From IMG/VR virus record IMGVR_UViG_2718217863_000002: 41,341 nt of DNA. One strand, written 5' to 3'. Both the position numbers and the translations under genes were made by a program. The notes below the pieces were generated by a model. That model worked only from the letters and a program-made list of their open reading frames with translations, was not told the DNA's origin and made no database searches. The DNA is from a virus. Its lineage: Duplodnaviria > Heunggongvirae > Uroviricota > Caudoviricetes. Below, piece after piece: positions 1,534 to 1,701 of this stretch. How positions within the stretch are numbered: the first letter of the stretch is position 1; every line of letters starts with the position of its first letter.

Positions 1534-1701
1534 TTACATGTTTTCGATGATCGCTTCACCAAACTCTGAACATTTCAGCAGCTTAGCGCCTTCCATCAGA
1601 CGTTCGAAGTCATAAGTTACGGTCTTGGCATTGATTGCGCCTTCCATACCTTTAACAATCAGGTCAGCCGCTTCAGTCCAACCCATATGGCGCAGCAATA
1701 T
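1534..1701 (-). pseudogene. icd: isocitrate dehydrogenase 3' fragment (55 codons), attachment-site duplicate
   Basis: Minus-strand translation [55 protein letters not shown] matches the Icd C-terminus; in-frame stop at 1702-1704 and no upstream icd sequence. Confidence 0.85.

Follow-up and report, generated by a model that had tools for sequence, protein, structure and literature searches.

A displaced icd 3′ end at the attR junction of a phage-21-class prophage in Escherichia coli

The mechanism of integration into icd has been known since 1989 for the e14 element and later for phage 21. Phage lambda, whose attP is of the form P-O-P′, integrates between genes. Phage 21 (GenBank OL657228 and M61865) carries a P arm, the core, an icd 3′ pseudogene, a terminator and three arm sites, followed by int and xis on the opposite strand; its record lists, besides a terminator, an unexpressed icd pseudogene made up of the last 53 codons, and 'attP ... 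3 subsites ... consensus YYTTCCCCAAAA'. The e14 element is a 15-kb defective remnant, its int is located 3.3 kb from icd and its arm sites are three copies of GTTATCAAAA; the icd end borne by e14 has 11 differences from the native end in 150 bases. The passages on e14 in PMC6379469 (citing Hill et al. 1989) and in PMC13626634 describe the same integration mechanism as the one proposed below.

We analyzed one 41,341-nt stretch of viral DNA (IMG/VR record IMGVR_UViG_2718217863_000002), which is called the window here. The whole window is the exact reverse complement of positions 1296182–1337522 of NZ_CP018109.1 (E. coli MRSN346595); therefore, each prediction of the first-pass annotation, which had been made from the letters of the window, could be tested in that genome. 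The order of the elements is the same as in phage 21, and the features that define the locus are listed below.

1–1533, plus strand: chromosomal flank with ycgX (1–405), ymgL (458–568) and iraM (1108–1431), from annotations; the gene order is as beside K-12 icdC
1488–1510, minus strand: native icd intrinsic terminator, moved along with the fragment (terminator scan; identical in the empty-site strain)
1534–1697, minus strand: displaced native icd 3′ end, very probably the B′ arm of attR, equivalent of K-12 icdC (translation, tblastn, identity to the empty site and to icdC, RefSeq pseudogene)
1684–1697, minus strand: 14-bp common core TGCTGCGCCATATG, with the crossover within it; a second copy lies at window-equivalent 41604–41617, just outside the window (three-way alignment, exact matches)
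1698–1827, minus strand: P arm of attR (phage DNA), with one arm-type site, ATTCCCCAAAA, at 1817–1827, 120 bp from the core (motif search; position and orientation as in phage 21 attP and in the IMG/VR contig L095)
1702–1704, minus strand: in-frame TAG on the phage side, closing the frame upstream of the fragment (sequence)
1698–41341, no strand assigned: body of one 39.9-kb siphovirus-type prophage (RefSeq on the identical genome, absence from the empty-site strain, core spacing, structural genes)
39973–40209, plus strand: excisionase gene xis (Pfam Exc, E = 7e-8; RefSeq annotation)
40199–41341, plus strand: tyrosine integrase of the phage 21 class, 380 aa, whose stop codon ends at the last base of the window (Pfam Arm-DNA-bind_1 and Phage_integrase; identity to phage 21 Int)

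The 55-residue minus-strand translation across window 1534–1701 corresponds to the C-terminal end of isocitrate dehydrogenase. The first-pass annotation had called it the last 55 residues of Icd; its coordinates are right to within four bases, but the true icd part is 53 codons plus the stop. The homology proper covers 1534–1697 (codons 364–416, the TAA stop and two bases of codon 363), whereas the first two residues of the translation, I and L, are encoded by two junction codons of phage-arm DNA. With the full Icd protein as query, tblastn matched the segment 1534–1701 with an E-value of 2e-25, far better than chance would give, and identified no other icd-like segment in the 41-kb window; the TAG lies directly upstream of the fragment, and both points are as had been described. 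The C-terminal end of the fragment matches positions 301–348 of the 348-position Pfam Iso_dh profile with 27.2 bits (cutoff 27), and RefSeq labels the fragment as a partial pseudogene, 'isocitrate/isopropylmalate family dehydrogenase'. From the crossover point outward, 297 bases (window 1401–1697) agree at every position with K-12 icdC (b4519) and the DNA flanking it; e14 uses the same attB in icd, and its displaced fragment and the neighbours iraM, ymgK, ymgL and ycgX are identical to those found here. Judged by its sequence, the fragment is already known in kind and, as icdC, in exact sequence. The mechanical ORF listing also contains a 54-codon ORF with a TTG start at 1698, which would make the fragment a short functional gene for an Icd C-terminal peptide. 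We consider this exceedingly improbable, as the DNA upstream of the ORF is a recombination arm, no promoter-like site was found within 1400–2100, and the equivalent piece is curated as an unexpressed pseudogene in both phage 21 and K-12.

Window 1–2100 shares 100% identity with several complete E. coli genomes; the otherwise identical genomes match it over 2099–2101 bases, so a length difference of one or two bases lies somewhere in this interval. Strain 4/2-1 is near-identical and lacks the prophage. Its sequence is 99.9% identical to window 1–1703 and continues straight into an uninterrupted icd; the chromosomal order in the empty-site strains is bluR-ycgX-ymgL-ymgK-iraM-icd-rluE. At the other end, NZ_CP018109.1 contains an intact 416-codon icd past the right edge of the window, convergent with int, with its stop located 112 bp beyond base 41341. 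The first-pass annotation had expected the functional icd junction just beyond the right edge, and had made its reading depend on icd being present there and on icd not running leftward of 1701. Both points were looked at, and neither went against the reading: the intact ORF lies where predicted, and because the empty-site strain has one continuous icd, icd does not continue leftward from 1701.

In a three-way alignment, the 14-bp core is present at both junctions, on the int side and in the window, as well as in the empty site of 4/2-1. The two copies are spaced by 39,920 bp, as given by their exact-match positions, and relative to the empty site the insertion runs exactly core to core. On the upstream side of the core (in icd orientation), the sequence at the int-side junction is the same as the empty site and represents the icd body, whereas that at the window junction is phage DNA unrelated to it. 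On the downstream side, it is the window junction that is the same as the empty site, including the native 3′ end and terminator, whereas the int-side junction is a diverged copy. This exchange of flanks is the BOP′/POB′ pattern of conservative site-specific recombination. In the lambda nomenclature, attL is the junction next to int; the fragment is at the int-distal junction and therefore marks attR. What had been named the left attachment site is indeed an attachment junction, but it is 'left' in window coordinates only.

Aligning both icd 3′ ends, which had been suggested as a way to define the att core, places the 14-bp core at the point where homology begins. In the 150 bases after the core, the two ends differ at 26 positions. 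Synonymous differences had been predicted between them, and 12 synonymous codons are present; the ends also differ by five amino acid replacements (G368Q, T370F, N385A, E410D and E414A; residue numbering was checked against H366, T370 and L375 in PMC13626634). The 124 bases that the copies have in common are enough for RecA-dependent exchange, and one may ask whether the icd 3′ end was duplicated independently of site-specific integration, through homologous recombination, gene conversion or an assembly error. Such an origin is hardly credible: the switch from host to phage DNA is abrupt at the core, the switch point is flanked by int, xis and arm sites, and the structure recurs in ten independent complete genomes. 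The hybrid icd is an intact gene of 416 codons with its own, phage-borne terminator. This terminator is a different hairpin from the native one; it was missed by a simple terminator scan and was shown by folding (−22 kcal/mol, z = −4). Past the phage-borne icd end, three direct copies of CTTCCCCAAAA lie between the hairpin terminator and the int stop codon.

Like lambda Int, the integrase of the window prophage consists of an arm-binding domain of lambda type (PF09003, E = 2e-27) and a tyrosine recombinase domain (PF00589, E = 7e-23); xis overlaps the start of int. Int has the same length (380 aa) as phage 21 Int and shares 82% identity with it over 378 aa without gaps; the RxxR...K...HxxR...H...Y motifs are readable in the alignment of the two proteins, and phage 21 also has the same core. 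The int-xis-icd′ DNA is 73.5% identical to that of phage 21. In contrast, e14 IntE is only 61% identical to the Int of the window. The arm sites divide in the same way. The P′ arm contains CTTCCCCAAAA three times between the icd stop and int (L001 3637–3671), different from the three GTTATCAAAA sites of e14; the consensus YYTTCCCCAAAA is common to phage 21 and the window prophage, and GTTATCAAAA sites are absent from both arms here. The locus had been described as bearing the signature of icd integrators such as e14 and phage 21; it belongs to the phage 21 class but not to the e14 class.

The int-proximal arm thus contains three arm-type sites and the distal arm at least one, an arrangement comparable to that of lambda. 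Unlike in lambda, the core falls within a protein-coding gene, whose 3′ end the phage brings along in compensation. In the P arm of phage 21, one further site (TTTCCCCAAAA) is located ∼120 bp from the core, as is ATTCCCCAAAA in the window. The aligned position and the orientation of ATTCCCCAAAA are as in phage 21, whereas the rest of the arm is poorly conserved. With its one mismatch, a motif of this kind should turn up by chance about once in a window of this size; taken alone it might be a chance match, and its conserved position is therefore what counts. For the P arm and the kilobase that starts there (1698–2699), the phage collection contained no matching record; against 80 viral loci, the P arm gave no megablast match and, with sensitive blastn, one 110-nt match at 69% identity.

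The prophage extends 262 bp beyond the window edge; in this stretch lie the three sites of the P′ arm together with the terminator and the icd 3′ end that the phage brought. The interval between the cores contains a single int and xis pair, a region for immunity and replication in the lambdoid style, genes for lysis, terminase and a head of the HK97 type, and a siphovirus tail with its fibres. After the tail fibres comes a cargo region that consists of an invertase, a umuDC-like pair, one hypothetical gene and a short pseudogene of an SOS-response peptidase. Apart from the attachment module, the genome is unrelated to that of phage 21; its HK97-type head and siphovirus tail genes are 94–95% identical to those of Klebsiella phages. 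The fragment might instead be the scar of an earlier icd-integrating element (e14 or phage 21), with the present prophage arriving later, in tandem or as a replacement, so that the two ends would not belong to one element. The fragment is, after all, identical to K-12 icdC, which e14 created, and tandem arrays of two prophage classes at icd exist elsewhere, with a phage-21-class int, an icd fragment and a GTTATCAAAA P arm. Here, however, the P arm beside the fragment has a phage-21-class site like the three P′ sites next to int, there is a single integrase and a single head and tail gene set, no further icd fragment is present, and the insertion is core to core relative to the empty site; we regard the scar as very unlikely. 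Since the class of the P-arm site matches that of the P′ sites next to int, both ends belong to one element. The earlier proposal that the whole interval is one prophage therefore stands, on the single int and xis, the single head and tail set, the lack of any internal icd and the arm sites of the same class at both ends.

Taken together, we are highly confident that the fragment is the B′ half of attR, left by phage-21-type integration into the host icd with a replacement tail. In the proposed mechanism, the tyrosine integrase would recombine attP with the 14-bp core inside the host icd (codons 363–367). The phage attP would lie at the 5′ edge of the phage-borne copy of the icd 3′ end, so that the host icd body would be joined to the phage-borne last 49 codons and the phage terminator, which would keep icd intact. 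The native 3′ end and its terminator would be left 39.9 kb away, beside iraM, as a promoterless pseudogene. If Int and Xis excised the prophage, the fragment would be reunited with icd and the native gene restored, as documented for e14. The predicted attP junction consists of the reverse complement of window 1698–1827, the core and sequence beginning with CAGTGGTTCGAAGCC; the predicted restored attB consists of the icd body, the core and sequence beginning with GGTTGGACTGAAGCG. The exact reconstructed attP junction had no match in IMG/VR. The anatomy, the empty site, the core duplication, the flank exchange, the integrase class, xis and the arm sites are all direct observations; that Int catalyzed the insertion and that the prophage can still excise is inferred. 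The arrangement is textbook and leaves the understanding of the mechanism unchanged; what the fragment provides are base-precise limits of the 39.9-kb prophage.

Relatives of Int were scanned in one genome per species, and 80 loci with 51–84% identity, distributed across Enterobacterales, were kept. At 49 of the 80 loci, icd or an icd 3′ fragment is convergent with int and located within 200 bp of the int stop. The int-icd spacers contain at least four classes of arm sites, namely YTTCCCCAAAA, GTTATCAAAA (the e14 class), TCTTCTGCAAAAC and TCAGTAAAAT; these four have the icd core in common across Enterobacterales. All integrases with at least 70% identity and available DNA belong to the YTTCCCCAAAA class, and CCCCAAAA is common to all of them, in two to four copies, mostly three. 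With icd beside int at 49 loci and at least four arm-site classes of related integrases using the site across Enterobacterales, the icd 'signature' is thus a widespread and understood strategy.

In some IMG/VR contigs whose int is 99% identical to that of the window, the icd fragment is followed by a P arm with the e14-class site GTTATCAAAA. In these tandem loci, the phage-21-class int and the icd fragment are joined through the common core to the GTTATCAAAA P arm; they are tandem lysogens of two classes. Tandem lysogeny at icd with different arm-site classes was seen at L090, L113, L115, L129 and L155 (IMG/VR) and at L013 and L041, which are on the same contig of Proteus columbae. L095, an IMG/VR contig whose int is likewise 99% identical, has a P arm with a phage-21-class site behind its icd fragment, in place of the icd body, which reads as an attP-like or same-class configuration. 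The class of the arm sites can be used to tell single from tandem prophages.

Several further genes of the prophage deserve description. Next to attR, the cargo (1833–4369) includes a umuD/umuC-like pair on the minus strand (3935–4369 and 2668–3993), the 155-bp remnant of an SOS-response-associated peptidase gene (1833–1987) and an unannotated 147-aa ORF (2038–2481, minus strand) that has no Pfam, PHROG or PADLOC match. The interval between lysis and terminase genes is a frequent place for extra accessory genes in phages; at 28177–29743, it contains here a DUF4747 protein (311 aa) and a 209-aa partner, both matching PHROGs of unknown function and neither matching in PADLOC. PADLOC, when run on seven unannotated prophage proteins, found nothing.

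The int-distal end of e14 is similarly laid out, with tail fibre genes, a Pin-type invertase, cargo genes and icdC. In the window, this end contains one 393-bp inverted repeat, 85% complementary, whose arms (5532–5924 and 10714–11106) lie over the 5′ ends of two tail-fibre or tail-spike genes of opposite orientation. The genes of this region (4919–11106) are as follows.

4919–5488, minus strand: Hin/Pin-family serine invertase gene, just outside one repeat arm
5580–7739, plus strand: tail-fibre or tail-spike gene, 719 aa
8719–11058, minus strand: tail-fibre or tail-spike gene, 779 aa, SGNH/GDSL type

The two tail-fibre or tail-spike proteins share an N-terminal stretch of ∼117 aa with 77% identity, and their C-termini are unrelated. 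The region looks like a host-range switch of the Mu G or e14 P type. All ten carrier genomes are collinear across the segment, with no difference in its orientation, and thus give no evidence of inversion.

This end of the prophage was found in 10 of 5,426 complete E. coli genomes; in all ten it is 100% identical and the prophage is integrated at icd. The structural genes are 94–95% identical to those of the Klebsiella phages KpF5 and KPP5665-2. The icd end carried by the phage and that of phage 21 have 22 differences in 150 bases, and the former is Klebsiella-like: the C-terminus that it encodes is identical to that of K. pneumoniae ATCC 13883 at 55 of 55 residues, and the last 150 bases of the hybrid icd (L001 2320–3570) share 96–97% identity with Klebsiella icd. 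The body of the hybrid gene is that of E. coli, which is 87% identical to K. pneumoniae icd. In addition, an IMG/VR contig with a 99.4% K. pneumoniae icd body has an int module 96.4% identical to that of the window prophage. The simplest reading is that one E. coli clone would have recently acquired a phage of Klebsiella lineage. A bolder version, in which a temperate Klebsiella phage arrived recently across genera, left the hybrid Icd with its five replacements and might use the invertase-flanked receptor-binding pair as a host-jump switch, we consider rather unlikely; in such a cross-genus case, conservation of the icd core across Enterobacterales would have made lysogeny in E. coli possible.

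The prophage is a new icd integrator of the phage 21 class with a Klebsiella-like body, and this likeness is the only new detail. It explains the odd, Klebsiella-like icd 3′ end in this lineage; the added value is modest and lies in a Klebsiella-type phage at the icd site in a rare E. coli lineage, in the four or more arm-site classes that use this site, and in arm-site class as a means to separate single from tandem prophages. Since icd is an MLST locus, the hybrid 3′ end matters for icd-based typing and phylogeny, both of which would be distorted if taken from this end of the gene.

The chromosomal flank contains a 43-nt direct repeat with 84% identity (616–658 and 1483–1525). It corresponds to a second copy of the icd terminator region, located 867 bp further out, beyond iraM and ymgK (40-nt match at 616–655). 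Searches for an older relic by tblastn and short blastn found no icd coding remnant beside the terminator-like copy at 616–655; the repeat may go back to a much older event at the site, or may just be a similar terminator. The flank also contains a run of 11 G at 1020–1030, about 80 bp upstream of iraM.
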